NCBI GenBank assembly: GCA_964234715.1
Contig: OZ174279.1
From: Podarcis melisellensis
Lineage: Eukaryota
Length of the DNA: 64,000 nucleotides
Direction: 5' to 3' (one strand)
Numbering within the stretch: the first letter of the stretch is position 1; every line of letters starts with the position of its first letter. Both the position numbers and the translations under genes were made by a program. Below the pieces are notes generated by a model that was not told the origin of the DNA, did not search any database, and saw nothing but the letters and a program-made list of their open reading frames with translations. This document shows, piece by piece, positions 4,117-22,465 of the stretch.

Positions 4117-4159
<43 letters not shown>

Positions 4160-6343
4160 TCCACGCAAAATAGAGTGCAATGGAGTTATGATTGCACATC
4201 ATTAAATCCTGCATGGAGTAGACTTAAGCTGCTCTGTTCAGAGTTCATCCATAAAGTCAGAAGGAAGTCATGTTACATTTCATGAGACTTACTCAGTGGT
4301 AACCTTGTATAGCATTTCAAACTGAGTTTACCTGTTGGATATTCAGGATTAAGCTATTACTGCTTCTCTGTGAGGAATGCACAGGAGTTTGAGGAATGCA
4401 CAAATAGAATTCTTTTAGAACTTGGGATCTGTCAAAGAAACTGACGAGCAGACAATTTTTTTTGACTTTTTCACATTATGTACTATTAACTAAAGGAAAA
4501 CATAGCCACAGGATTTGGTGACAGAAACCATCTTTGGTGACTTTTAAAAAGAAATCCTTTGTGATTGGGGAACTCAATTATTGTTAAATATGATAACTAA
4601 AACCCTCCAAGTTCAAAGAGAGCCTCCTTCTGCATACCAGATCCTGAATGTGACCTAGGGGTGGACGGTTACTTTCATTACTTGTTTGAAACCCTCCCAG
4701 AAGCATCTCGCAGCCTGCCATTAGAAGCAGAATGCTGGAGTTTATGGAACTTTGTCTGAGGTGAGCCAGGAATCAGGCACTATGAGACAAGGTAAGTAAT
4801 CAGAACTGAATAAAAAGTCAGGACCAAGCAACAAATCAGGAGGCAAGGCCAAGAAGCAAGCCAGAAGTCAGGGCCAAAGTATAACTAAAGATACAGGAAC
4901 ACGTCAAGAAAACTATGTTGTTCTAGGAAGACTCAATTGGAACAGGAAGTTTCATACTCCTTCCTGTTGAGGAGGATCCAATGGCCAGCCAGTGCGATGG
5001 TAGATGGAGTCAGTCCAGGACCTGAAGATAATTAAGAAGCTGTCACATGCAGTTCATTGACTCACCACACGGAGCAGCTGTCCAAGAATCTTAACAGCTC
5101 CCATCAGTTTCTTATCCAGGAAGTCTGAGATCTAAGAACTTAATTTCTATTGTCAAGTTTAAATGGGTTTCATTGGAATTTGGAGTCTCCAAGATCACAT
5201 TTGCTCCTGGAATAATATCATTTTAGAGTGATGGCCCCAGTAACCAAGTCTTTTTCATAAAAGGCAGTAAAGCAGAGAGCATGAACACTCATTTCAGCAA
5301 TTGATGGATATTATTTAAGTTAGGGTGGGCTATGTGATTCATGGGGGAAAATATTTAAAAGGATAGGTGAGAGTATGGGACAAATGTAATGCATTCCCAG
5401 GGGCCACACATATTGCTTCATTATATTTGGTGTCCCAGGAGTTAAGAAAGTGCACTACATTGCAACATTATTTTCTCAAAAGGCCCTAATAGGCTTTGCC
5501 TTTTAAAAGCTTCGGAGTAGTTTGTCAGGTTGCAATACATCAAGAAATACACTTGATGCAAGTTCAAAACACACTTTTGTCAATCCAGCCTTTCCCCTGA
5601 AGGGAAGATTGAACTAGAAGTAAAATACCAAGTGTTTCCCTTGGCCGAATGGGAAACTAAAGGTTTTTAGGAGACGGACTGCTCCAACCTAGCTTCCTCC
5701 AGGTGTTTGGGGTTAACAGCTCCCATCATATCCCTGAGCATTTGGCCTTGCTAGCTCTGGCTGATAGGTGTTGCAGTCCAAGTGGAGGTCACCAGGATGG
5801 GGGAAGCTGGTAGGCATTCTTCATAGTTTTTCATGTGTGCACCAGGGGTGGGTGGATACATCTATTTCAGTTTCTCGGTTTCTAATTTTTCCAACCTTTG
5901 GCTCAGTTCTCCAGACTTCCACATCAGCTTGCAATTTTATTTTATTTTTAGAAGTCCTCATGAGAATTTATATACACAACCTTTGGCATGCTTTGATTAA
6001 CTTCTGCAATGTTATATGCTACAAAGATTATAGATAATTTATGATAAGTTAAAAGTAATACAATAATCAGTCAAAAAGGAAACAAAGGACGGAAGTCTCA
6101 ATGTATGGAATTGTTTTTTGTATTTGATGTGATTTTTTCCCCCTCTGGTTCTTTTTGTGGTGAATGGATTCAATATTTAAAATCAATAAAGATTAAATTG
6201 CAAGAAAAGAAAAGGATTTATATACACATAACCTACACATTTTGCATATTATTTTTGTAAAAGCAATTTCCCCCATTATAATGGGTGGGACTTGACTAAG
6301 TTTGACTCGGAATAGATCCTTTGAAATTAATGAACATGACTAA

Positions 6344-7366
6344 ATATTATGAAAATGATGTATAGATGGTACTTAACCCCAGTAAAATTAGCAAAGATCT
6401 ACCATACAAGTGATAATTTATGTTGGAAATGTAAAGAAAAAGAAGGTACCTTTTATCATATGTGGTGGACGTGTCCTAAAGTGAAAGACTTCTGGGAAAA
6501 GATTTATAATGAATTGAAAAAAATGTTGAAATATAAATTTATTAAGAAACGAGAAGCCTTTCTACTTGGAATAATAGGATTGGAAATGCCCCAAAAGGAT
6601 GTTAGATTTTTTTGTATGCCACCACCGCAGCAAGAATCTTATTAGTTAAAATTAGAAATCGCAATGGATACAACAGTAGAAGAATGACAGATGAAGATGT
6701 TCGACTTATTAGAGCTGGCCGACCTTACTGGAAGAATCCGTGATCAGAAAGAAGAGGAACGCCAAGAGCAATGGATGAAATTTAAAGACTATTTAGTTAA
6801 ATATTGTAATACAGTGGTACCCCGGGTTAAGTATTTAATTCATTCCGGAGGTTCATTCTTAACCTAAAACTGTTCTTAACCTGAAGCACCACTTTAGCTA
6901 ATGGGGCCTCCTGCTGCTGCCGCACTACCGGAGCACAATTTCTGTTCTAATCCTGAAGCAAAGTTCTTAACCCGAGGGTTAGCGGAGTCTGTAACCTGAA
7001 GCATATGTAACCCGAGGTACCACTGTATAAGACAAGTAGAAGCTACTTGAAAGTACCAATTTGGCTAAGGAATAGAATATGATTAAACTGTAAAACATTA
7101 TGGGTTTATAAATTATGAAAAGAAGTAAAGATAGTAATTGGAAGGAGTAAATTTTGTTACAAAGAAAATATTGGAAAACTGTTGCAAGGGGATACAGTGG
7201 AATTCAGTTAGGGGGGATTTGAGGAAGTCAGTTTACAATGAAAACTAAATTGGATTCTAGAAGGATTGTGTGTTTATATGTATGTTTTTCTTTTTTCTTT
7301 TTTCTTTCTCTTTTTAGTATGTGATATTTGTTATAAATTTGGAAAATTAATTAAAAAAATTAAAAA
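6344..7366 (+). mobile_element. 5'-truncated L1 (ORF2 C-terminus, 3' UTR, A-rich tail) with 21-bp TSD
   Basis: ORF 6349..6645 has the L1 CCHC motif CWKC..GTFYHMWWTC; TSD gaaattaa(t/c)gaacatgactaa at 6323-6343 and 7367-7387. Confidence 0.9.
6812..7025. mobile_element. Tc1/mariner (Tigger/pogo-like) MITE nested in the L1
   Basis: TIR cagtggtacc...ggtaccactg flanked by TA on both sides; a second copy in opposite orientation at 50145-50386. Confidence 0.85.
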
Positions 7367-9386
7367 GAAATTAACGAACATGACTAAGTTAATTTCAGTG
7401 AATCTACTTGTTGGGTAAATCTTAGTAGAATACAGCAAGTTTTTGTAGGCTATTTTCACCAATATGTGCATTTTTATGCACATTTTTATTTTTTATTAGA
7501 AAAAAAACAGTTCAGTGGCAGAGCACTTGCTTTACATCTCTAAGATTGTAGGGTTTTTTATTATTATTTGCTTGCCTTTTAAAATGATTGGATGCCAGGT
7601 AATAGGAAAGACCCTCTGCCTGATACCCTGCCAGTCAGAGTGGACAATATTAAGTTAAGCCCAGCTTTCTTTCTGTGTTCCATAGGACGTGTGTAAGAAT
7701 GTATCCTTGAATCAACTTGGGGATGACCAACAAACTCATAAAGGATCACTTCTTGATAGCCATTGATCTGGAATAATTTTACGTCACTAGAAATTACTGT
7801 GTTGAATGGAAATTGTACAGGTCTGATCCTGAACGATGAATTATTCTTTCATGGCAAAAAGAAAATCTCTTTGAGGAAGGAATCATTGTCCTTTTCTAGG
7901 TGAGCTATTGTCATTGCGGAGTAAACCCAGTTATCTGATAAGGTTTGTGGGGAGGGTATTATCTGCTGGACAATGTGCATTTGGCCAATGACAATCCAAT
8001 CAGCGTTTGGTCATGGCTCAGTGGAGTGGCGGTCTTAAAAAATGAAAGGGGAGGACATTGCAGGCTGTTGGCTAAGCCAGTCTTTCCCTAAATGAAGCTT
8101 TAATGAACCAACTTCAATTTCACCCAGATGGGTCAGAGGTTGCCAGCTTCTCTTCAAGCATTTAACATTTCAATCTCACCGTCAACAACTCAGCCTCATC
8201 CCCCCCCCTCAATGTGTACAATCTGTGTGCTCTATCACCCAATCTGTTAGCTGCTCTAATTTTTCACACAATGAAATGTTAATGCTTTTAAGATCATTTA
8301 CATATGGCCTAGTAGTTATTTAAGAAAACAGCAATTAGATGTGTTGGGATAATTAACAGTGTGCATACCATTAGCAACGTGTGAATAATACGTTTTTTAA
8401 GACGCCAGGCATTCAGGCAATGAAAGCCAAGTAAATGTAATCCAGCCCTCTCAGTTAAGATTTTATTTCCTCATTACATTAATTAAAACTAAAAGTATTC
8501 TGTTCAGAGTCAGTGGGAGGCAGGGTAGAATGGGTCAATGACCACTTTCCCCTAGAGGAATCCCAATCAGTTTGAACCCTATTTTTCTCACACACCTGAA
8601 AAGGGCTTTCAGAATCATATCTGCATTTTGTTCTTTTCTTTTCTAATGGCAGAAATGTGAATTTTGGCTCACTCATTCATCAGCAGGACGTGGAACATAA
8701 TTCCTCAGGGCAACCTAAACTATGGACAGCAGTGTCCATAGCTTGACTCAACTCAGCTCTTTTGCATCCATAATTAACTTTCTTGTTAATGTACCCACTG
8801 ATGTCAAACAGAATGAAAACGTTATGGCAGCGTGGTCCTGAGCATTCCCTAGAAGTCAATAATTTCAAAGGCCCTGCTATGCTATTGTTTCCAAATTAGG
8901 CATTAAAAGACATTAAAAGGCTCCCCCTCTGGCTCAGTGAATATGACATTATACTTGGCAGCATCTAAAGTCAAATTGGAGAATGATCTTGGGTTATTGG
9001 ATTAGCTTTCCTTACATGTACTTGTTTCCTGAAAAAAATAGTACTTATGCTCCATTTGTATTACTCAGTGTCTCTCTGTTTTACAGAAGACTTTAAAGAA
9101 CTGAAACTGATAGTTACAAAGGCGTCATAGCCTTTTACTCAATGGGCTTTACTTTTGAGTAGTCATGAATAGGATTGTGCCATTAGTTACTTATTTGCTG
9201 AGGGCATTACTCTTCCCTGAATGAGGGACCAATTGTGCTGTATTTTCTTCTTGTTTTCAGAATTCATTTTTGTTGCTGATTTTATGCTGTTCGCCACCAT
9301 GATTTTTTCCCTTACTGTTGGCAGTATAGCCATTTTTGCCCAAATAAAATAGCTGCATGTGGAAAGGTCCTCATAGGCATAGGCAT

Positions 9387-11746: not shown

Positions 11747-11980
11747 CTCCAGGCCCAGTTCTTCAACGCACGGGCATGCGATTGCATGGTACCCAAATCC
11801 CATTCTATGAAATCTCAGAAGTGGGGAATATTTAATGGTAAGGTCATGAATTTTTCAAAAACACTCGTGAGACTTTTCAGTTGAAGCCATAGAACCACAC
11901 ACTCATGCACTTGGGTCTACAGGGAATAAAAGATCCAGTCAAAAGGAATCTGCCAGTGAGGGGAAGACTATATAGTTTTT
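11747..11980 (+). repeat. 234-bp direct duplication, copy 1 (left flank of the Ngaro element)
   Basis: ctccaggcccagtt...gactatatagttttt matches 15749-15982 with no difference found by eye. Confidence 0.95.
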
Positions 11981-12374
11981 TGTGTGGCTATTCCCTCCCC
12001 CCCCCCCACAGGTGGAATAAATGAAGACAACGGACACAGAGTTTTTAGGTTAATGGGCGAAAATGGCCACAACTTTATTGATTACAGGAAAGAAGGGTAT
12101 TGGCTTTAGGCATTGGGCCTAACCGACTATCCGGTCTGACCGGGAAGGGTTAAACACCAACAGGGGGAGCCACCCGAGATGCATATCCCTAGGCGCTCCC
12201 CGAGGGGTTACCGCTCGGGGGCGCGCTTTAGGCCCTAGCCTCCGTAGGTTTCGGACGAGGCGTCGCCCCTCGGAGTCCTTTAACGAACTACCCTTCAAGC
12301 ATTGGGGGAGGTGATGGCGTTCCTCCCCCCCAACCTCATCTGCATGATAATACCCCGGCCAATGCCTACCGCCA
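11980..12374 (-). repeat. Ngaro split direct repeat B2
   Basis: Matches 12769-13161 apart from 2 substitutions and a 2-nt poly-C length difference; minus-strand AATAAA near 12074-12079. Confidence 0.9.
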
Positions 12375-12768
12375 AAACCGAGGGAGTTGTGACGATTTGC
12401 TACGAGGTAGGCGAAAAAAACCAAGTGGCTCACCAAACCAGCCAATTAGCCAAATGGAAAAACTCCTACCAGGCCCCTTGCGGCGACCAGCCGAAGCCCA
12501 TAGCAAGGTCAGTGGCAAAACCTAAAGGGCGGGTGGGTGGGAAACCGCGTCGTCTCCAGGGAAGAAAGGTGGCGAGCCAGGGGCTGCCCTGACCTTAAGT
12601 GGCCCTACGAAGGCCCGCCCCTGCCGCCAGCCGATTGGCTGGCGCCACAGGGTATGCTAATTGAGGGAATCCCTGTCTCCCGCGAGGCTGACGCCAGCCT
12701 CGCGAGAGCAAGTGTGGGCGGGGTCGTGATCCCACAACCCCCCCTCCTCCTGAAGGTCGGAAGGGGCA
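12375..12768 (-). promoter_or_regulatory. Ngaro A2 segment with promoter-like boxes
   Basis: Unique segment between the B repeats; minus strand shows CCAAT (~12634-12638), a GC box GGGGCGGG (~12614-12621) and a TTAAG element (~12594-12598) in promoter order. Function is inferred. Confidence 0.55.
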
Positions 12769-13161
12769 TTGTGTGGCTATTCCCTCCCCCCCCCACAGGT
12801 GGAATAAATGAAGACAACGGACACAGAGTTTTTAGGTTAATGGGCGAAAATGGCCACAACTTTATTGATTACAGGAAAGAAGGGTATTGGCTTTAGGCAT
12901 TGGCCCTAACCGACTATCCGGTCTGACCGGGAAGGGTTAAACACCAACAGGGGGAGCCACCCGAGATGCATATCCCTAGGCGCTCCCCGAGGGGTTACCG
13001 CTCGGGGGCGCGCTTTAGGCCCTAGCCTCCGTAGGTTTCGGATGAGGCGTCGCCCCTCGGAGTCCTTTAACGAACTACCCTTCAAGCATTGGGGGAGGTG
13101 ATGGCGTTCCTCCCCCCCAACCTCATCTGCATGATAATACCCCGGCCAATGCCTACCGCCA
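12769..13161 (-). repeat. Ngaro split direct repeat B1
   Basis: Near-identical to 11980-12374; begins about 30 nt after the SGNH stop codon. Confidence 0.9.
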
Positions 13162-13193
13162 CCGAGCCGCAAGCCGGCTCGCCGCCAATACCC

Positions 13194-13769
13194 TCAGACC
13201 TGTAACCAATCCCTAACGCCTTGAAAAATATCTGCCAACCAAATATCATTGCCAGCATCAGATAGATGCACGCCATCCCAGCGATAAAGCATTTCCTTGT
13301 CAAACCGTATGCATGGGTGCTGAATGACCCGACCGCCCCATGCGGCCACTCTACGCGCCACCGTGCGCTCCACAATCCTCCTAGCTTTATTCACTGCCAC
13401 GGGTTTCTCTGCATCCCGCCAACATTGCCTTTCCAGCAAAGATGACCAAATTATTGTAAAGCTTTCATGGGATGCCTCCAACAATTCCAAGTCATTAATA
13501 ATGTTCCACATCAAATCCACCCCTTTTCTATACGCCAGGTCGTTCTCGCCCAGTTGGATGATCAAGGCACTGGGTAGGCCCTCGGCAGCGATTTTCCTGG
13601 ATACAACTGGGAAAAAACTCCTCCCAACGCATACCCCTCCTGGCGATCCATGACAATTTGACCCTGCTGGGTAGCCGTAGCTCCTTATCCCAGCCCCTTT
13701 GTTCTGTGCGCCGCTTTGCCCAATATACGATGCTGTGGCCGAGGATCCACAGTCGAACCACACCAGTAC
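13194..13769 (-). pseudogene. SGNH/GDSL hydrolase ORF of the Ngaro element (one frameshift)
   Basis: Joining ORFs 13528..13761 and 13194..13763 by removing one base from the A6 run at 13612-13617 gives VVRLWILGHS (block I), RGM (II), QLGEND (III), DGVHLS (V). Confidence 0.85.
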
Positions 13770-13831
13770 CTGAAATGAGAGAATCGGGGAACCAGATCAG
13801 GAGGAGTGCCAGGGGGAAAGCTGAGGGGAAT

Positions 13832-14803
13832 TTAGAAGGGCTTCCGGATGTAACCCCGGTATGCGTTAGATTTCCAGTGCCCCATGTCCATAATTCTTTG
13901 CCGGTAAACCCATATGGGCGGCGGTGGTCGCCGCCCCAATGCGAAAGGAGTGTGCGGCGTACTCCTCCTGGGGAAGCCCGATGGCGGCAATTGCCTTGCG
14001 CATGACCCTCGTGAACTGTTGCTTTGAGAGGGCAGAACCATCGGAATGTAAGAAAAAGGGGCCACTAGACTCTGGTCTTACACACAGGTATTTTCTGGCA
14101 ACCTTTACAGGGCAAGGGCCCGCCTTTTGAGTCGCCTGGAGGCGAACCAAGGCTCCCTTGCCAAGCTGATCAGTCTTTGAGCTACGGATTTTTAACGTTA
14201 CATGCGCACTGTCCACTGTTACGTCCTCCAACAATAGCCCCTTAGAGGCTGTGCGGTCCTCACAGACCACTTCACCTATGCGTAGGGCGCCAAAAAATGG
14301 AAAAGAAAACGCTGCTGAAAATAATCTGGCTTCGTATCTTGACCAACACAAGGCCCTCAACTTCCTACGGATTTGGGTGAGTATGTCTAAAGCTATGGGC
14401 CTTCTCCTGTCCAGGCCGTGCGGCCTGGACCTGCGCCAACCCTCAAGCATCTTCCGCACCACGAACTGCGAACAGGGATCAACGGGAAATAAGGTTTTAG
14501 AAAAGAAGGATATAGCAGCTGAATGAATATTGAGGGTTTTGGGGGCCCGTCCAAGATCTCTAAGGTGGACCAAATACTCTATGACTTCCGACTTGGACGG
14601 TGGCCTGCCCGGCTTGAATCGCTCCTTTTTGATGCGGAAGGATGTGAAGTCTAGCCATGCCTTATTATACGATCTCAGGGTAGAAGGCGCTAGCGTGGAC
14701 AATACTCCCTTTATTGCTTCTCGTTGCCAATATTCCAGAGGTGCACCGGGAATGGTTGCGGCTGCTGCTGCGCATCCGGCGCCAATGCGCGAAAGCGTTC
14801 CAT
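13832..14803 (-). pseudogene. Tyrosine recombinase of the Ngaro element (C-terminal frameshift)
   Basis: ORF 13866..14702 has LAPST, LRIGE, SKTDQ and HSFRIGAAT; GHWKSNAYRGYIR with the catalytic Tyr lies in another frame (ORF 13832..14065), with the shift near 13895-13900. Confidence 0.9.
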
Positions 14804-15748
14804 CTGGAAACGAGATAGGGCATCCGCGATGTTATTATCAATACCGGGGACAAACTTGGCTGAAGCGTGAAGGTTCAACCGCAAGCAGGAAAGGACAAAT
14901 TACCGTAAAAGGGACGCTACTCTGGGTGAACGTGACGATTGTTTATTCAAGACTGACACGACCGCTAGATTGTCCGTCCCGAAACAGACCCTATGGTTTT
15001 TAAACTGGTCTTCCCATAAGTGGATTGCAACTACGATGGGAAAGAATTCTAAAAATGTCAAGTCCCGTAGTATTGGTTTACCTTGCCAGGAGGGAGGCCA
15101 GTGCTGAGCACACCACTGGCCACTGAGCACCCTATCGGCATAGATTTGTCTATGGAATAAGCCCCCTCAAATCTAAAAACCTTGCCATATAAATTCCTCA
15201 GGGTGAATTGGCAGGAGACGGAAAGTCCACTCAATGTCGCACTTTGCCAAGAGCGCGCCCCTGCTGAACCTGCGCATACGATTTATAGCCTGATCAAAGG
15301 AGGCATATTTCACAGAATAAGGCTTCTGTGGTATTGCATCATTGACTGAGCCACCTCCAGGGTAGGGTAGGTTGTCGATCATAGGATACTCTCCTGGAGT
15401 CTATGGGGGGACAATGCCTAAAGGTGAAATGAGTAAACCCGCTATAGGTGGCTCCCTGAAGGGACCGGCCACCCTCCCAGCCAGAAATTTCTTTTAATTT
15501 CTTTTTTGCAATAGCTGGCATTTCCCAAACTGGTTTTTTTTTGGGGGGGGGTCCCTGAGTTAGGGGGTAATGAACGAGGATCTTGAAGCCATAAGAGAAA
15601 CTCTTTCCCAGGGTACTTTGCTGCCTCTATTTTAGGGTATTTATCGAGAAGGGTTCTAAGAGGTGAGAGCTTAACAGAAGAGAACATCACAGTCAAGGGC
15701 CAAATTCATAGCAGCTTGTGGTTGTTCCTTTTGGCGGGTCTTTGAGCT
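14711..15748 (-). pseudogene. Reverse transcriptase/RNase H remnant of the Ngaro element
   Basis: SVNDAI...YASFDQA...AKCDI...FRLLPIHP (RT N-half), LTFLEFFPIVVAIHLW...TDNLAVV and VPGIDNNIADALSRFQMERFRALAP (RNase H); several frameshifts, and the RT core is deleted near 15120. Confidence 0.85.
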
Positions 15749-15982
15749 CTCCAGGCCCAGTTCTTCAACGCACGGGCATGCGATTGCATGGTACCCAAAT
15801 CCCATTCTATGAAATCTCAGAAGTGGGGAATATTTAATGGTAAGGTCATGAATTTTTCAAAAACACTCGTGAGACTTTTCAGTTGAAGCCATAGAACCAC
15901 ACACTCATGCACTTGGGTCTACAGGGAATAAAAGATCCAGTCAAAAGGAATCTGCCAGTGAGGGGAAGACTATATAGTTTTT
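15749..15982 (+). repeat. 234-bp direct duplication, copy 2 (right flank of the Ngaro element)
   Basis: Matches 11747-11980 at an offset of 4002 bp. Confidence 0.95.
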
Positions 15983-16455: not shown

Positions 16456-17291
16456 ATTTTTTTAAAAAAAAATTATTCATTTTTCAAACACATAATTAAA
16501 AACAAACACAACACAAAACAAAACAAAAACATACACAACATTAAACATATACCGTCTTCCCCATACCTCCCTTTCGCTGCATCCTTATTCCACAATTCTT
16601 CAGCAACCCTTTAGTCAATTTATCTATTAGTTCCCTTTCATTAAATTTCCTTAAACTTATTAGTTACAGCTGTAATTCTCTACTTCTTACCCCTTGACAT
16701 CTTAACACTCCTCAATTTTACAACAGTTTTTAAGATATGTTTTAAATTTCTTCCAGTCCTCTTCCACTGTCTCTTTCCCCTGGTCTCGGATTCTGCCGGT
16801 CATCTCTGCTAGTCCCATGAAGTCTGTCACCTTTGTCTGCCATTCTTCCAGAGTAGGTAGTTCTTGCATCTTCCAATACTTTGCCAGAAGAATTCTTGCT
16901 GCTGTAGTAGCATACATAAAAAAAGTCCTATCCGTCTTTGACACCAGTTGGCCAACCATGCCCAGGAGAAAAGCCTCAGGTTTCTTAGGAAAAGTCCACT
17001 TAAGGACCTTCTTAATTTCATTATAGATCATTTCCCAAAAGGCTTTAATCTTTGGGCAGGTCCACCAAAGGTGGTAAAAGGTACCTTCAGTCTCATTACA
17101 TTTCCAGCATTTATTATTGGGCAAATGGTAAATTTTTGCAAGCTTGACTGGGGTCATGTGCCACCTGTAAATCATTTTCATTATGTTCTCTTTTAAGGCA
17201 TTACATGCCGTGAACTTAACACCAGTGGTCCATAACTGTTCCCAGTCAGCAAACATAATGTCATGACCGATATCCTGTGCCCATTTAATCA
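16456..17291 (-). mobile_element. L1 3' part (ORF2 C-terminus and 3' UTR), interrupted by the copia element
   Basis: ORF 16702..17292 has CWKC..GTFYHLWWTC and is homologous to 6349..6645; T-rich tail at the left end. Confidence 0.9.
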
Positions 17292-17655
17292 TGTCCCATT
17301 AAACTTTAATTAGTTTAATGTAAATGCCCAGTGCACTTCCTTCTTTAAAAGTCTCACCACGGCAGAGGATTTCGCGCAGCAGCTAAGAAGGGCAGGAGAG
17401 GCAGCATCTTCCCAAAAAGGAGTCCTGGAGCATGCGGTTTGTAAATCAAAAATAAGGTTTATTTACAAAACACCAAAAAACAATCCTGGCGACGAACCAC
17501 ACATCTCAGCAAAACACACACCCAAAAGGAGAAGGGGGAGAACAAACAAACAGGGGGACTATTTATACAGACTCATGTTCCTGGAAGCCTAATGACCTCC
17601 AGCTGCTCAGTGATTAGAGCGTTTCTGCTACTCTTTTAACCCTTTGATAGCAACA
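17292..17655 (-). repeat. Copia 3' LTR
   Basis: tgtcccatt...gatagcaaca, identical by eye to 22102-22465; minus-strand AATAAA at 17458-17463. Confidence 0.95.
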
Positions 17656-17668
17656 CCCCCTCTTGCTC
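17656..17668 (-). other. Copia polypurine tract
   Basis: Minus strand GAGCAAGAGGGGG directly abuts the 3' LTR. Confidence 0.85.
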
Positions 17669-17690
17669 GTAACACTGAGCTGTACCAACC

Positions 17691-20498
17691 TTAATACAAA
17701 TTTAAACCTGAACAGAAACATTTATGAGATTGCGGACTCAAAGCTTTTGTAAAACCGTCTGCGAGATTTTCTTGGCTTGGACAATACTTTAGTTCAATTA
17801 AACCTTGTTTTACACTTTGGCATACATTTTGATAACGGATATCCAAGTGTTTTGTGTGCGCCTTGAATTGACCTGATTTAGCTAGTTTAATACAAGGTTG
17901 ATTGTCTTCCCACACTCTGATAGGTAGGGAACATTCTCCAAACAATTCTTGTACCAGTTGCTTATAAAATTCCAGTTCTCTACATATATCTGATAACGCA
18001 TTGAACTCAGATTCAGTTGAACTTAAAGCTATAAGTGATTGTTTTCTTGATCTCCAACCAATTAGTGCATTTCCAAATTTTATCGCCATTCCTGACACTG
18101 ATTTTCTATCTGGTCCAGCATCTGCCCAACTGCTGTCGGCCCAACATTCAAGTTGTGTGCTGCCCTCTGCTGATAGTTTTAAGCGAAAGCTTTTGGTAGT
18201 TTGGAGATACCTTAAAACTCTTTTTACTCCTTGCCAAGCATGCATTGATGGTTTTTCAGCTTGTCTACACAGCATGTTGACAGCATATGTTATATCGGGC
18301 CGAGTCCACTGTGCAATGTGGAGTAGACTGCCTATCGCTGACTGGTAAACCCCGGGATTACAGAACTCTGCCTTTTGCTCAGTTTGCGCATCCTTTGTGT
18401 AACTTAACTCCATTGGGGTTTTAACACCAGCACAGTTGTTCATTTTAAACCTTTCCAGCAACTGCTGGATTTTAGCTTCTTGGCTAAGCCAATAGTTACC
18501 ATTTTCATCTTGCTGAATTTTAACTCCTAGATAAACAGATACATTGCCTAGTGATTTTAACTGAAACCTTTCTCCAAGCTTTGTGGCAAATTGTTGTGCA
18601 AGTTTATCATCCTTTCCACTGTATAATAAATCGTCAACAAATATCAAAACTGCTTCTTGTTCACATCCCGAGCCTTTTAGATAAAGACACGCATCTGCTG
18701 CGCTCTTTCTGAACCCCATGCTCTCTAGAGCATCGTTTAAGCAGGAATTCCAATTACGGGCGGACTGTTTCAACCCATAAATGGATTTGTGTAGGCGCCA
18801 GACCTGGTTTGGCTTGTCTCCTTCAAAGCCTGGTGGTGGTGTCATATAGACTTCCTCCTGTAAGTCTGCATTTAAATAAGCCACATTGACATCAAAATGA
18901 AACAGCTTATTACCCTTCTTAGCTGAAGAGGCTAGAAGCATTCTTAATGACTCCGATCTTGAAGTAGGGGCATAGATTTGAGAATAGTGAACACCTTTGC
19001 GCTGCGAAAACCCTTTTGCAACTAGTCGGGCTTTATATTGCAACTCTTCAGTAGTTGTGGGCTTTAAACGATATACCCATCGACAACCTACAGCTTGTTG
19101 CCCTTTCGGAAGCTCTGTACTTGTAAACACACCGAGAGACTTCATTGAAGCCATCTCTTTTTCCATTGCTTCCTGCCACTTTACGGCTTCTGAGCTTGGA
19201 AGCTGTTGTACTTCCATATAGCTTTCTGGCTCACACTGTGCCATATTTACGTATACACTTGTCACCTTAAACCGCTCTGGTGGCTTGCCCTTCGTGGCGC
19301 GTTTTGACCTGCACAATTGCTCCTCTTGTGCCCCCTCTGACCGTTGGCTGTCAGAATCTGTCTCAGACTTTATGTCTGGACGTGCCTCTAGGGATAAAGA
19401 CCTCCGTTTAGATACCTCCCTTGGGCTTGGTGTTGCAGGTGACCTGCTTTGCTTTTGCTGTCTGCTAGGCCTACTGACTGGCGAAGTTGGAGCACTCCTA
19501 GATTCTGGCTTTTCTACCTTAGGAGAAGAACCTCGTGCCTGATCAGAATCTGCATCTGAACCATGTGCACCATCCCCTTCTGGCTCATCACTCTCTGGAC
19601 TTTCTTTCTCAGCATGAATGCCTAAATCATCTCTCAAAATGTCAGGGTTAGCGTGTAAGTGAGTCCATCCGGACTGCTCACAAAAATCAGCGCTCCTACT
19701 GAGGACCACTCTTGTAGTATCCCCACCTGGGTCCACAAACCTCCAAGATTTGGCATGTGGTTCGTACCCGCAAAAGATGAGTTTCCTAGCCCTTGGACTT
19801 CCCTTTTTCCTTAACGCTTTTGGGATAAGTACATAGGCTTGAGATCCAAACACCCGAAAGTAATTAACTTTGGGCTTCTTCCCATATAAAGCAAAATAAG
19901 GCGTAGTATCAATTACCGAATTATATACTCGGTTCAGAATATGAGTAGCCGCCTGCCAGGCTTCCGCCCAGTAACTTTGAGGAAGTTTAGCATCAAACAA
20001 CATAGAGTTTGCCAACTCTTGCAGAACCCTATTTTTACGTTCGGCCACGCCTCCTTCTTGGGGGGAATAAGGTGTAGACAGACGATGCTTAATTCCCTTT
20101 TTCTTAAAGAAATTCTGCAACACAGACCCGGTAAATTCTGACCCTCTGTCTGTCTGAAAAGCAAGTACTCTAGTACCGAATTCAAGTTCTACCGCATGAA
20201 CCCAATTTTTAACTGTTTCTGCAGTATCTGCTTTTGTTTTGAGAGGAAAAAACCATGTAACCTTTGTTTTGTCATCCGAGAGACACAGTGCATACTTTGA
20301 ACCTCCCATGCTAGCAACAGGCATTGGGCCACATAGGTCCATATGCACAAGTTGGAATACTTTGTCAGATTTCCTATCTGAACTGGGATAGCTGCATCTA
20401 TGAACCTTCGCACTTTTGCATGCAGTACAATCCAAATACTTAGTACATTTGTTCAATTTGCACCCTTCTGATAATTCAGGTTGCCTTTTAACATACTG
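17691..20498 (-). CDS. pol: Copia pol: integrase, reverse transcriptase, RNase H
   Basis: CTAC zinc motif; HMDLCGP / TDRGSEF / GVAERKNR (DDE); FDVNVAYL, YGLKQSARNW, FVDD (RT); WADSSWA, STESEF, EDNQ, TKHLDIRY, LADGFTK (RNase H). Open without stops; the ORF-track start at 20456 is a TTG, not a true initiator. Confidence 0.93.
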   Translation of the reverse strand, partial: QYVKRQPELSEGCKLNKCTKYLDCTACKSAKVHRCSYPSSDRKSDKVFQLVHMDLCGPMPVASMGGSKYALCLSDDKTKVTWFFPLKTKADTAETVKNWVHAVELEFGTRVLAFQTDRGSEFTGSVLQNFFKKKGIKHRLSTPYSPQEGGVAERKNRVLQELANSMLFDAKLPQSYWAEAWQAATHILNRVYNSVIDTTPYFALYGKKPKVNYFRVFGSQAYVLIPKALRKKGSPRARKLIFCGYEPHAKSWRFVDPGGDTTRVVLSRSADFCEQSGWTHLHANPDILRDDLGIHAEKESPESDEPEGDGAHGSDADSDQARGSSPKVEKPESRSAPTSPVSRPSRQQKQSRSPATPSPREVSKRRSLSLEARPDIKSETDSDSQRSEGAQEEQLCRSKRATKGKPPERFKVTSVYVNMAQCEPESYMEVQQLPSSEAVKWQEAMEKEMASMKSLGVFTSTELPKGQQAVGCRWVYRLKPTTTEELQYKARLVAKGFSQRKGVHYSQIYAPTSRSESLRMLLASSAKKGNKLFHFDVNVAYLNADLQEEVYMTPPPGFEGDKPNQVWRLHKSIYGLKQSARNWNSCLNDALESMGFRKSAADACLYLKGSGCEQEAVLIFVDDLLYSGKDDKLAQQFATKLGERFQLKSLGNVSVYLGVKIQQDENGNYWLSQEAKIQQLLERFKMNNCAGVKTPMELSYTKDAQTEQKAEFCNPGVYQSAIGSLLHIAQWTRPDITYAVNMLCRQAEKPSMHAWQGVKRVLRYLQTTKSFRLKLSAEGSTQLECWADSSWADAGPDRKSVSGMAIKFGNALIGWRSRKQSLIALSSTESEFNALSDICRELEFYKQLVQELFGECSLPIRVWEDNQPCIKLAKSGQFKAHTKHLDIRYQNVCQSVKQGLIELKYCPSQENLADGFTKALSPQSHKCFCSGLNLY

Positions 20499-21837
20499 AA
20501 AAATTAATATGCCCTAAACGGCGGTGCCATAAATGAACACAAGAATTATGGGTAGGCGTGTTCACACAACCAGCATGAACCTGTTCAACTTCATCTGGAC
20601 TTGTCTCAAAATAATATAACCCATTTCTGCATTCCACCTGCAAAAGAGATACGTTATTCTTTGAAATAGTGCAAACCCCATTTTCAAACACAGTTTTAAA
20701 CCCATTTCTATCAAGTTCTGACACAGACAAAATACACCCCTTCAGTCCCTTTAGCACGTAGGCATCAATTTCTGTTTGCAAACAATTCAAGAACACTGTG
20801 CCTACAGTCTCTAAGGAACGTTTAGTTGAATCTGCCATTGTCACAACTTTAGGGGTTAGCAAATGTCTGCAATTCTGCAAACGTACACTAGATGGCGCCA
20901 CCAGGTGGTGAGATGCACCACTGTCGATCAACCAGCGTAGATTGCTGCCTTGGCCACGCCCTTGCATCAACGCCATTGCTGAAGCCATGTGCTGTGTGCT
21001 GTGGGAGTAGCCACGACCTCCTCCTCTTCTTCGACGTCCCCTGGAACTCCTTGTCTGGTAACTAGGGGTAACGGCCTTGTTGCTGTCTTGACCAGGTTCA
21101 CGTGTGCAATTCCTGATTAGATGGGAAGGGGAACCACAGCGAAAACAGTGTCTAGCTGCAAAAGCATTTACTGTGTGCTCAAACTCAGCATCAACACTCT
21201 TAGGCACAGCATAACTCCCCTTTAAAGACAAACCTCTTTCTCTTTGCCTTTTATCCTGTTCATCCGCAAGCCGAGAAGAAATGTATTCAAGGGTTAATTC
21301 AGTTGAAGGCATAGCTTCCAAAGTTAGAGCTAGAGTCTCATAGCTTTTATCAAGAGAAGACAACAATATGTATGACTGCTGCTCCATAGAGAAAGGAATG
21401 CCCAGCTGTCTTAGTTGATTAAAGGCAGACACCATTTTGGCAATATGTTCTTTCACACACGCTCCCGGTTGGAGACGTAAATCAAACAAACATCTTGTAG
21501 CATGGATCTTGGCCCCCGCAGTGTTTCTGGAATTTAACCGCTGCAGAACCGTCCAGACCTCATGCGTGTTCTTTAACTCAGAAACATAAGGCATTTGCTC
21601 TGGTCCCACTGCCAAAACTAGTAGACCTTGGGCTTTCCTGTCGCGTTTCTGTGAAGCTGCTGCTGCTGCTTTGGCTTCTGCAGACGCGTCTGCAGCTGCC
21701 TGTAAAGGCGGTGCTTCAGTACAGCTCCACAACTCTTTTGCTTGCAACCAAACCCTTACTCTAGCCTTCCAATCTTGCCAATTTTTCCCATTGAGTCGCG
21801 TAAACGGGACAGTAAAACTTTCCTGGGACTCTGCCAT
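20488..21837 (-). CDS. gag: Copia gag, protease and start of integrase
   Basis: LNGKNWQDW, YILLSSL, zinc knuckle CFRCGSPSHLIRNC, protease WLIDSGASHH, HLWHRRLGH; ends at a 1-nt frameshift. Confidence 0.93.
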   Translation of the reverse strand: MAESQESFTVPFTRLNGKNWQDWKARVRVWLQAKELWSCTEAPPLQAAADASAEAKAAAAASQKRDRKAQGLLVLAVGPEQMPYVSELKNTHEVWTVLQRLNSRNTAGAKIHATRCLFDLRLQPGACVKEHIAKMVSAFNQLRQLGIPFSMEQQSYILLSSLDKSYETLALTLEAMPSTELTLEYISSRLADEQDKRQRERGLSLKGSYAVPKSVDAEFEHTVNAFAARHCFRCGSPSHLIRNCTREPGQDSNKAVTPSYQTRSSRGRRRRGGGRGYSHSTQHMASAMALMQGRGQGSNLRWLIDSGASHHLVAPSSVRLQNCRHLLTPKVVTMADSTKRSLETVGTVFLNCLQTEIDAYVLKGLKGCILSVSELDRNGFKTVFENGVCTISKNNVSLLQVECRNGLYYFETSPDEVEQVHAGCVNTPTHNSCVHLWHRRLGHINFSVC

Positions 21838-22092
21838 CCTCCCTGGGGCTTAGGAACGATACTCACACACCTGTAGACCGTCTCCCAGCTGCTGAGGTGG
21901 CTCCTTGAGGAATCAGACGTCTTCCAGCGAGTACAAACTGCGCAGTGCCTCTTTAAAACTTTTCTAGGCACGTTGCAGGACTCAAGCTGCTTTGGAGGCT
22001 TTCGTTGTCGGCAACCGCTTCTGTCTTCACTCCAGTCCTTGCATAAATCACTCTGAACTGCTCTCCTTATCTCCTTCTTGACGTACAAACAA

Positions 22093-22101
22093 CCCATAAC
22101 C
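22093..22101 (-). other. Copia primer-binding site (internal tRNAiMet type)
   Basis: Minus strand GGTTATGGG directly after the 5' LTR CA, matching the start of the Drosophila copia PBS GGTTATGGGCCCAG. Confidence 0.8.
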
Positions 22102-22465
22102 TGTCCCATTAAACTTTAATTAGTTTAATGTAAATGCCCAGTGCACTTCCTTCTTTAAAAGTCTCACCACGGCAGAGGATTTCGCGCAGCAGCTAAGAAG
22201 GGCAGGAGAGGCAGCATCTTCCCAAAAAGGAGTCCTGGAGCATGCGGTTTGTAAATCAAAAATAAGGTTTATTTACAAAACACCAAAAAACAATCCTGGC
22301 GACGAACCACACATCTCAGCAAAACACACACCCAAAAGGAGAAGGGGGAGAACAAACAAACAGGGGGACTATTTATACAGACTCATGTTCCTGGAAGCCT
22401 AATGACCTCCAGCTGCTCAGTGATTAGAGCGTTTCTGCTACTCTTTTAACCCTTTGATAGCAACA
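22102..22465 (-). repeat. Copia 5' LTR
   Basis: Identical by eye to 17292-17655; minus-strand TATAAAT at 22371-22377. Confidence 0.95.

Follow-up and report, generated by a model that had tools for sequence, protein, structure and literature searches.

DIRS-53_XT of Xenopus, a Ngaro-like element of the order DIRS, carries gag, an RT/RNase H, a recombinase and an SGNH hydrolase of no proven function, and neither splicing nor introns nor frameshifting is mentioned in its description (bioRxiv 10.1101/2021.08.05.455354). Splicing and introns are likewise unmentioned in a paper on fungal Ngaro elements (PMC3783388), and no splicing or slippage model for Ngaro appears in the consulted portions of PMC7192593, PMC6681497, PMC3266345, PMC8547959, PMC4157794 and PMC9341512, or of PMC3498833, PMC5009743, PMC3783388, PMC5633606 and PMC5718144; the founding papers, Goodwin and Poulter 2004 and Poulter and Butler 2015, may mention splicing. 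Two questions follow these elements: how are the overlapping, start-less ORFs of the order DIRS translated, and what is the nature of the Ngaro hydrolase product? No account of either was found in the parts of the literature that were covered. As for frameshifting, influenza A makes PA-X by a +1 slip at UCC_UUU_CGU (PMC3498833), and amalgaviruses have UUU_CGN +1 sites (PMC5052127). The sections seen of the Atkins 2016 review mention neither DIRS nor Ngaro, and no PA-X-type +1 slip in a retrotransposon was found in the literature, as far as it was covered.

The locus described here lies in a stretch of 64,000 nucleotides of Podarcis melisellensis DNA (assembly GCA_964234715.1, contig OZ174279.1), called the window below, and is the 3' half of a Ngaro-type element (Table 1). 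Like DIRS-53_XT, its family has split direct repeats in the arrangement A1..B1-A2-B2 and four ORFs (bioRxiv 10.1101/2021.08.05.455354); B1, A2 and B2 are in the window, and A1 stands at the 5' end of full-length copies. Whereas DIRS-53_XT is described, in the portions consulted, with overlapping ORFs only, the ORFs here would be linked by a predicted donor in gag and a predicted +1 slip. The window copy itself is a dead, 5'-truncated element, with no gag, donor or slip site, the truncation being at 15748, and it cannot express either of the fusion proteins proposed below: it cannot use the splicing system because gag is missing and because its subfamily appears to come from RNA with the donor GT already removed. 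It is also chimeric, since its 5' part is about 66% identical to family-1 copies versus 95% to L115, and the source of that part is the deleted lineage of L034 and L115 type. Indels shift the frame of both of its enzyme ORFs, by 2 nt near 13900 in the recombinase and by 1 nt near 13617 in the hydrolase. The searched stretch is shared at 99-100% identity with four other copies, and its nearest named protein relatives are from lacertid lizards. The 234-nt flanking repeat is probably a later rearrangement and not a target-site duplication; it likely arose when repair moved between an allele with the element and one without it. No target-site duplication is visible at the ends of L031, L033, L034, L054 and L057. 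Elsewhere in the window, a Copia-type LTR element (17292-22401, minus strand) has LTRs of which 300 nt are reported identical and a 940-codon integrase-RT frame, and it breaks the 3' end of a LINE-type ORF2 (16702-17298); similar LINE ends adjoin several Ngaro copies (L035, L057, L112).

Table 1. Features of the window copy (positions in the window) and, in the last line, of a full-length relative (positions in that copy)
Feature	Position	Strand	Remarks
Ngaro-type element, 3' half	11981..15748	-	ends in B1-A2-B2 split repeats
Flank	15749..15982	.	234 nt; identical repeat at 11747-11980
Degenerate RT ORF, 5' part, from a second Ngaro lineage (carrier of the putative fossil splice)	15119..15748	-	95% identical to L115
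ORF2, RNase H end, family-1 type	14711..15126	-	96% identical to L035, as is 15126-11981 overall; translation; the two lineages of the chimera meet at about 15119-15126
Predicted recombinase 3' splice acceptor	14804..14820	-	phase 1; CAG at the end of RNase H codons for Ser-Arg-Phe-Gln, which are rich in pyrimidines
Tyrosine recombinase exon, no initiator ATG	13832..14803	-	PF00589/PF13495 below curated cut-off; frameshift near 13900 in the subfamily
Non-coding pyrimidine spacer	13770..13831	-	ends in predicted hydrolase acceptor AG, phase 1
SGNH/GDSL hydrolase exon, no initiator ATG	13194..13769	-	GHS, RGM, GEND and DGVH blocks; weak Pfam and PDB GDSL matches; frameshift near 13617
Split direct repeat B1	12770..13161	-	AATAAA at 12866
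Split direct repeat A2, second copy of A1, which is missing at the 5' end	12541..12769	-	CCAAT, GC box, TTAA word
Split direct repeat B2	11981..12374	-	AATAAA at 12079; element 3' end
Full-length copy L057: A1, 1.6-kb leader, gag ATG, RT/RNase H, recombinase, hydrolase, B1-A2-B2	gag ATG 3517; RT/RNase H 4892-6640; recombinase 6520-7521; hydrolase to 8166

The comparison covered 74 loci of the Podarcis melisellensis genome from four selections, namely 39 close copies (40 scored of 246 candidates, minus the window copy), 20 distant copies picked from 91 matches, 14 picked from 47 matches to the 5' lineage and one pattern match; the copies share descent, so that the counts given below overstate independence. 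The order gag, RT/RNase H, tyrosine recombinase is seen in L057. RVT_1 lies above the Pfam cut-off and PF00589 just below it, the HSFRIG..R W..Y residues being invariant in the recombinase alignment. ORF2 stops about 30 codons past the RNase H motif and, unlike that of DIRS1 and PAT, shows no methyltransferase domain, RVT_1 being its sole Pfam match. An SGNH hydrolase ORF follows 3' of the recombinase, with visible catalytic blocks, Pfam GDSL matches below cut-off (E 3e-4) and weak PDB GDSL matches (E 0.08-0.19). The leader of 1.4-1.6 kb holds 0-3 ATGs versus about 20 in shuffles (in the 5 of 16 copies that could be anchored) and is therefore followed by the only good start, that of gag; RT, recombinase and hydrolase have no start near their N-termini. 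No relatives were found among viral contigs.

For the intact relatives, alternative splicing from one donor in gag to either of two acceptors, with RT probably made by a +1 slip, is very likely. A single transcript would begin near the end of repeat A1, as promoter-like words there suggest, and ribosomes would scan the nearly ATG-free leader to the gag ATG. Unspliced RNA would yield Gag and, after slippage at a conserved CCC_UUU_CGN, Gag-RT-RNase H; splicing from the donor after gag codon 214 to the AG embedded in RNase H would give Gag-N plus recombinase, and use of that donor with the second AG, which follows the recombinase stop, would give Gag-N plus SGNH hydrolase. Both enzymes would take their start codon from the shared Gag-N half, which would probably also bring them into the nucleus or target them to particles; it has a conserved, helix-like short segment at its N-terminus and, immediately ahead of the donor, a Lys/Arg tract. 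The feature is real, and as an expression scheme for a known element family the arrangement is well supported.

The donor is the part that the window lacks. The first-pass annotation, made from the window sequence, had postulated a single donor in a lost leader or gag region, and a phase-1 GT downstream of an ATG was accordingly sought in full-length copies and found inside gag, as CAG|GTA after codon 214 of L057, where the junction falls at position 4159 of that copy (C3:110867323 in the genome). The L057 positions homologous to 14803 and 13769 of the window are 6548 and 7592. It is the sole one of six candidates that is kept among close copies, the others (a leader GTGAGT and four other gag sites) having been dropped, as they vary between copies. 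The donor matches CAG|GTAAGT at 7-8 of 9 positions, and the Gly codon that contains it is GGT in 43 of the 44 gag-bearing, peptide-anchored loci, which span families about 65% identical. Only L071 departs from this, and it has CAG|GTAGGT, a strong phase-1 GT, six codons later. Ten other conserved Gly columns have GGT in at most 13 of 21 copies. A genome-wide pattern census of family 1 returned 42 sites with GT...T and one otherwise (L124/L125). What stands of the original proposal is thus the single upstream donor for both acceptors, which the copies, a RefSeq pair and fossil deletions support; its position is mid-gag and not in a short leader, and the products would be fusions of the Gag N-half rather than short-leader fusions. 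Also within gag, Gln149 (L057 3961-3963) is CAG in 19/19 copies, is preceded by a T-run in L057 and resembles a further acceptor, and the Podarcis gag models P0158 and P0159 skip about 55 residues from or next to the donor (L057 about 4327), which suggests a further in-frame acceptor in gag.

The acceptor proposed for the recombinase, the AG at 14805-14804 of the minus strand, does lie inside RNase H codons, and only phase 1 reads from it into the recombinase frame. That frame was said to have no ATG near its N-terminus: the first Met in the window is about 119 codons downstream of the AG, and upstream of it the frame is open for just 9 codons. The same holds in the loci compared, with 6-10 open upstream codons and no ATG in 66/66, and the 56 intact ORFs do not reach a Met before codon 31-270. 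CAG|AT is found at the site in all 62 peptide-anchored loci (12 are without anchor), versus CAG at 225 of 345 upstream Gln codons, and in non-redundant copies the preceding codons are TCY for Ser (22/22), GCY for Ala (22/22) and CGY for Arg (20/21); of the 61 conserved columns of RNase H that lie further upstream, not one is synonymously invariant. Conservation here is partly protein constraint, since the site is inside coding sequence. Distant relatives in metagenomes comprise 80 loci, 59 with the motif, 55 with an open recombinase frame and 53 with phase-1 geometry; these last have the AG at the site (39), two codons later (10) or at neither position (4), and the Gln codon at the acceptor is CAG in 38/38, compared with 99/205 upstream.

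The hydrolase acceptor, proposed as an AG at 13771-13770 (minus strand) with a pyrimidine tract in phase 1, is again one from which only phase 1 reads into the frame, and the frame was correctly described as lacking an ATG, none being present in the 105 open upstream codons of the near-identical L031, L032 and L034. Of the 74 loci, 59 could be anchored on the hydrolase, and in 57 of these a YAG precedes the Trp by exactly 20 nt, with 84% pyrimidines upstream of it; one of the two misses has lost 2 nt after the AG and the other has no AG. The YAG at -20 is kept in 19 of 20 copies that are only about 65% identical to L057. Both acceptor sites are hence conserved, and not the chance words of one decayed copy that a loss of AG or pyrimidines elsewhere would have made of them. 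The branch-like CTGAT seen in the window fared less evenly: many close subfamilies retain it in the form CCTGAY, and it is not found in L060, L062-L069 and most distant families.

The splice signals are observed in genomic sequence, and the donor-acceptor junctions are seen only as RefSeq models of relatives. Two isoforms of Zootoca vivipara LOC118082278, X1 (XP_060139102.1, 533 aa) and X2 (XP_034965332.2, 397 aa), are identical for 207 Gag residues, after which X1 continues into the recombinase from Asp, as G+AT predicts, and X2 into the hydrolase. This is the leader-recombinase and leader-hydrolase pair that the first reading had predicted, in the annotation of another species. Alternative RefSeq isoforms are normally supported by transcript alignments. 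The models are, at the same time, automatic predictions, and other joins among them, such as recombinase-to-hydrolase in P0004, P0005 and P0151, show that not all are reliable. The Podarcis model P0001 is 93% identical over 235 aa to the unspliced gag P0145 and diverges at the donor position. The Gag-N-hydrolase form occurs in 12 lacertid models (7 of 12 longer hydrolase relatives, plus 5 from a second search), with the junction residue 7 before Trp, the spacing that a phase-1 AG at -20 demands, and 6 before it in Zootoca. As to the recombinase, 14 of 25 rows have Asp 36-37 residues before the core, preceded by non-genomic sequence, and come from Podarcis, Zootoca, Pogona, Anolis, Eublepharis and Mytilus; genomic read-through occurs in 5 of the 25. 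It is highly probable that the two predicted junctions form in Podarcis melisellensis.

Use of the donor is also suggested by deletions in the genome itself. L124/L125 lack about 520 nt, a segment that in relatives starts at the donor GT and ends in an AG at the gag Phe-Arg-Arg-Asn codons, and the same deletion is found in L034, L031, L114-L119 and L121-L123 compared with their undeleted relatives L112, L113 and L120 (513-524 nt); in L118, which has no junction anchor, the match to gag likewise ends at residue 214. Because the flanks belong to different families, two independent events, with homologous GT..AG ends, are implied. The most plausible reading is that spliced RNAs returned to the genome by reverse transcription and insertion. 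Both end at a third AG, inside gag, and their breakpoints share 2-3 nt (AG or AGG), so that for either fossil taken alone a microhomology deletion is a tenable reading. Deletions adjoining A1 (L031-L033, L048, L051, L064, L069) do not end at acceptors. None of the 43 family-1 donor matches of the genome-wide census is joined to the recombinase or hydrolase acceptor. Among 15 of the 28 joints in three contig sets of one sample aligned on L057 no donor-acceptor joint is listed, nor is a loose end at the donor among the matches listed for the same contigs, and contigs cannot show the absence of either.

A different signal is expected for RT, whose frame is +1 relative to gag, runs for about 560 codons downstream in intact copies and has its first ATG about 139 codons past the overlap motif in most close copies. 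The point of entry into the RT frame is confined by stops that lie 3, 6 and 8 codons upstream in three of the copies. Only 3 of 104 conserved gag columns are synonymously invariant in 21 non-redundant copies, and two of them are the CCC (19/19) and TTT (21/21) of the candidate slip site, which encode the Pro-Phe of a Pro-Phe-Arg after the zinc knuckles, the Arg codon being CGN in 21/21. Over all loci TTT is kept in 55/55, TTT C in 54/55 and TTT CG in 45/55; nine cases of TTT CC or CA are in degenerate copies, mostly of the gag-deleted lineage. L067 is the sole gag-bearing family-1 copy without the slip motif (TTT TGT), and its splice route into RT is open, as a single case. Ten distant loci have the +1 geometry, and TTT CGN is in the overlap of six, with about 1 expected from a background of 3 in 1793 codons, and missing in four. 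No stimulatory RNA structure was detected 3' of the site, the mean z being -0.34 for the 21 copies and -0.16 for 126 control windows. The site is like those of PA-X and the amalgaviruses in its UUU_C, its A-site CGN and its position at the 5' end of the +1 ORF; it differs from that of PA-X in that the product would be a retrotransposon Gag-Pol and the usual 5' codon is CCC, UCC_UUU_CGN being present in L072, L088, L135 and L145. For PA-X, according to the parts of PMC3498833 that were covered, a UUU_CGU to UUC_AGA change abolished slippage, and CCC as 5' codon lowered it by 40-70%. That RT is made by +1 slippage at CCC_UUU_CGN is, given this conservation, likely.

Could a third splice, joining the gag donor to the AG in gag that the fossils used, lead to RT instead, with recombinase and hydrolase spliced as proposed? 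Both fossil products use that AG exactly, and in 9 of 35 copies, L067 (TTT TGT) among them, the resulting frame stays open past the slip site and on into RT. It is, however, closed before the slip site in the other 26, which include the young intact L053-L059 and L061 (stop after 18 codons); the third AG is weak, reading GAG in most copies, and missing in several families, and a retained TTT C motif in 54/55 loci also speaks against this route, which we regard as unlikely. A scheme with no functional splicing, where the recombinase would arise by a second frameshift from RNase H and the hydrolase by re-initiation, read-through or an upstream ATG, draws on the overlap of the ORFs and on RefSeq models that read straight through. 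It can also point to in-frame ATGs ahead of the hydrolase, which the first-pass annotation had named as evidence against its own proposal and which do occur in 8 of 34 copies, 74-104 codons upstream and inside the recombinase; the other 26 do not share them. Against it, the RNase H end has no common slippery heptamer (TTC CAG and TTT CAG vary), 38-51 ATGs lie upstream on the full-length RNA, and the spacer between recombinase stop and hydrolase varies freely in frame (55-85 nt, all three length classes modulo 3, in the 34 of 39 copies measured) while the AG holds its exact distance and phase. The invariant GGT donor and the fossil deletions would be left unexplained, and such a scheme is very improbable. 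Least credible of all is that the sites are cryptic by-products of protein constraint and the spliced RNAs in annotation noise, for although Gly-GGT and Phe-Gln codons can form splice-like words and the third acceptor appears cryptic in most copies, synonymous alternatives are excluded at the candidate splice sites only, the hydrolase acceptor is in a non-coding spacer, and neither the recombinase nor the hydrolase ORF has a conserved start without splicing.

Alternative splicing from a gag donor, as preferred here, has familiar parallels. Retroviral and gypsy env is expressed from spliced subgenomic RNA, and foamy virus pol is also spliced. The element would be like them in using one 5' donor for downstream acceptors, with unspliced RNA as genome and gag mRNA; it would differ in that the donor is mid-gag, so that about 210 Gag residues are predicted to be fused to each enzyme, and in that integration is the task of a tyrosine recombinase, which is produced separately from RT. 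LINEs of the CR1/L2 type have ORF1 proteins with an esterase. A GDSL domain is also encoded by ORF3 of rotifer LTR elements, as described in the parts seen of PMC5718144. All share an SGNH/GDSL domain on or beside a retroelement structural protein, and the fusion proposed here is set apart by being made by predicted splicing, which would replace the C-terminal half of Gag and its zinc knuckles.

Extended to animal Ngaro in general, the scheme would give four proteins from one gag ATG (Gag, Gag-RT by a PA-X-type slip and two Gag-N fusions), with the hydrolase as a Gag-N-esterase, Gag-N as a targeting tag and an RNase H acceptor that is ancient beyond lizards; we lean towards this wider reading, with modest confidence. 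If it is true, any biochemical work on the recombinase or the hydrolase would have to deal with a Gag-N fusion, the long-unexplained hydrolase would be a Gag-N-esterase resembling the LINE ORF1 esterases, and the UUU_CGN +1 frameshift would extend from viruses to a retrotransposon. The model would also account for 'uncharacterized' and 'xerD homolog' gene models in the annotations of reptiles and other animals.

Some further observations concern the family's copies in this genome. L038-L040 share, at about 5350-6280, a repeat-rich insertion of about 930 nt with inverted ends that breaks RT in these three related copies, and the 39-Mb contig C19 holds a cluster of many Ngaro copies, intact as well as decayed. 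Repeat B (L057 8244-8560) has a summed contig depth of tens to more than 100 times that of the ORFs, which suggests many short non-autonomous elements or solo repeats.
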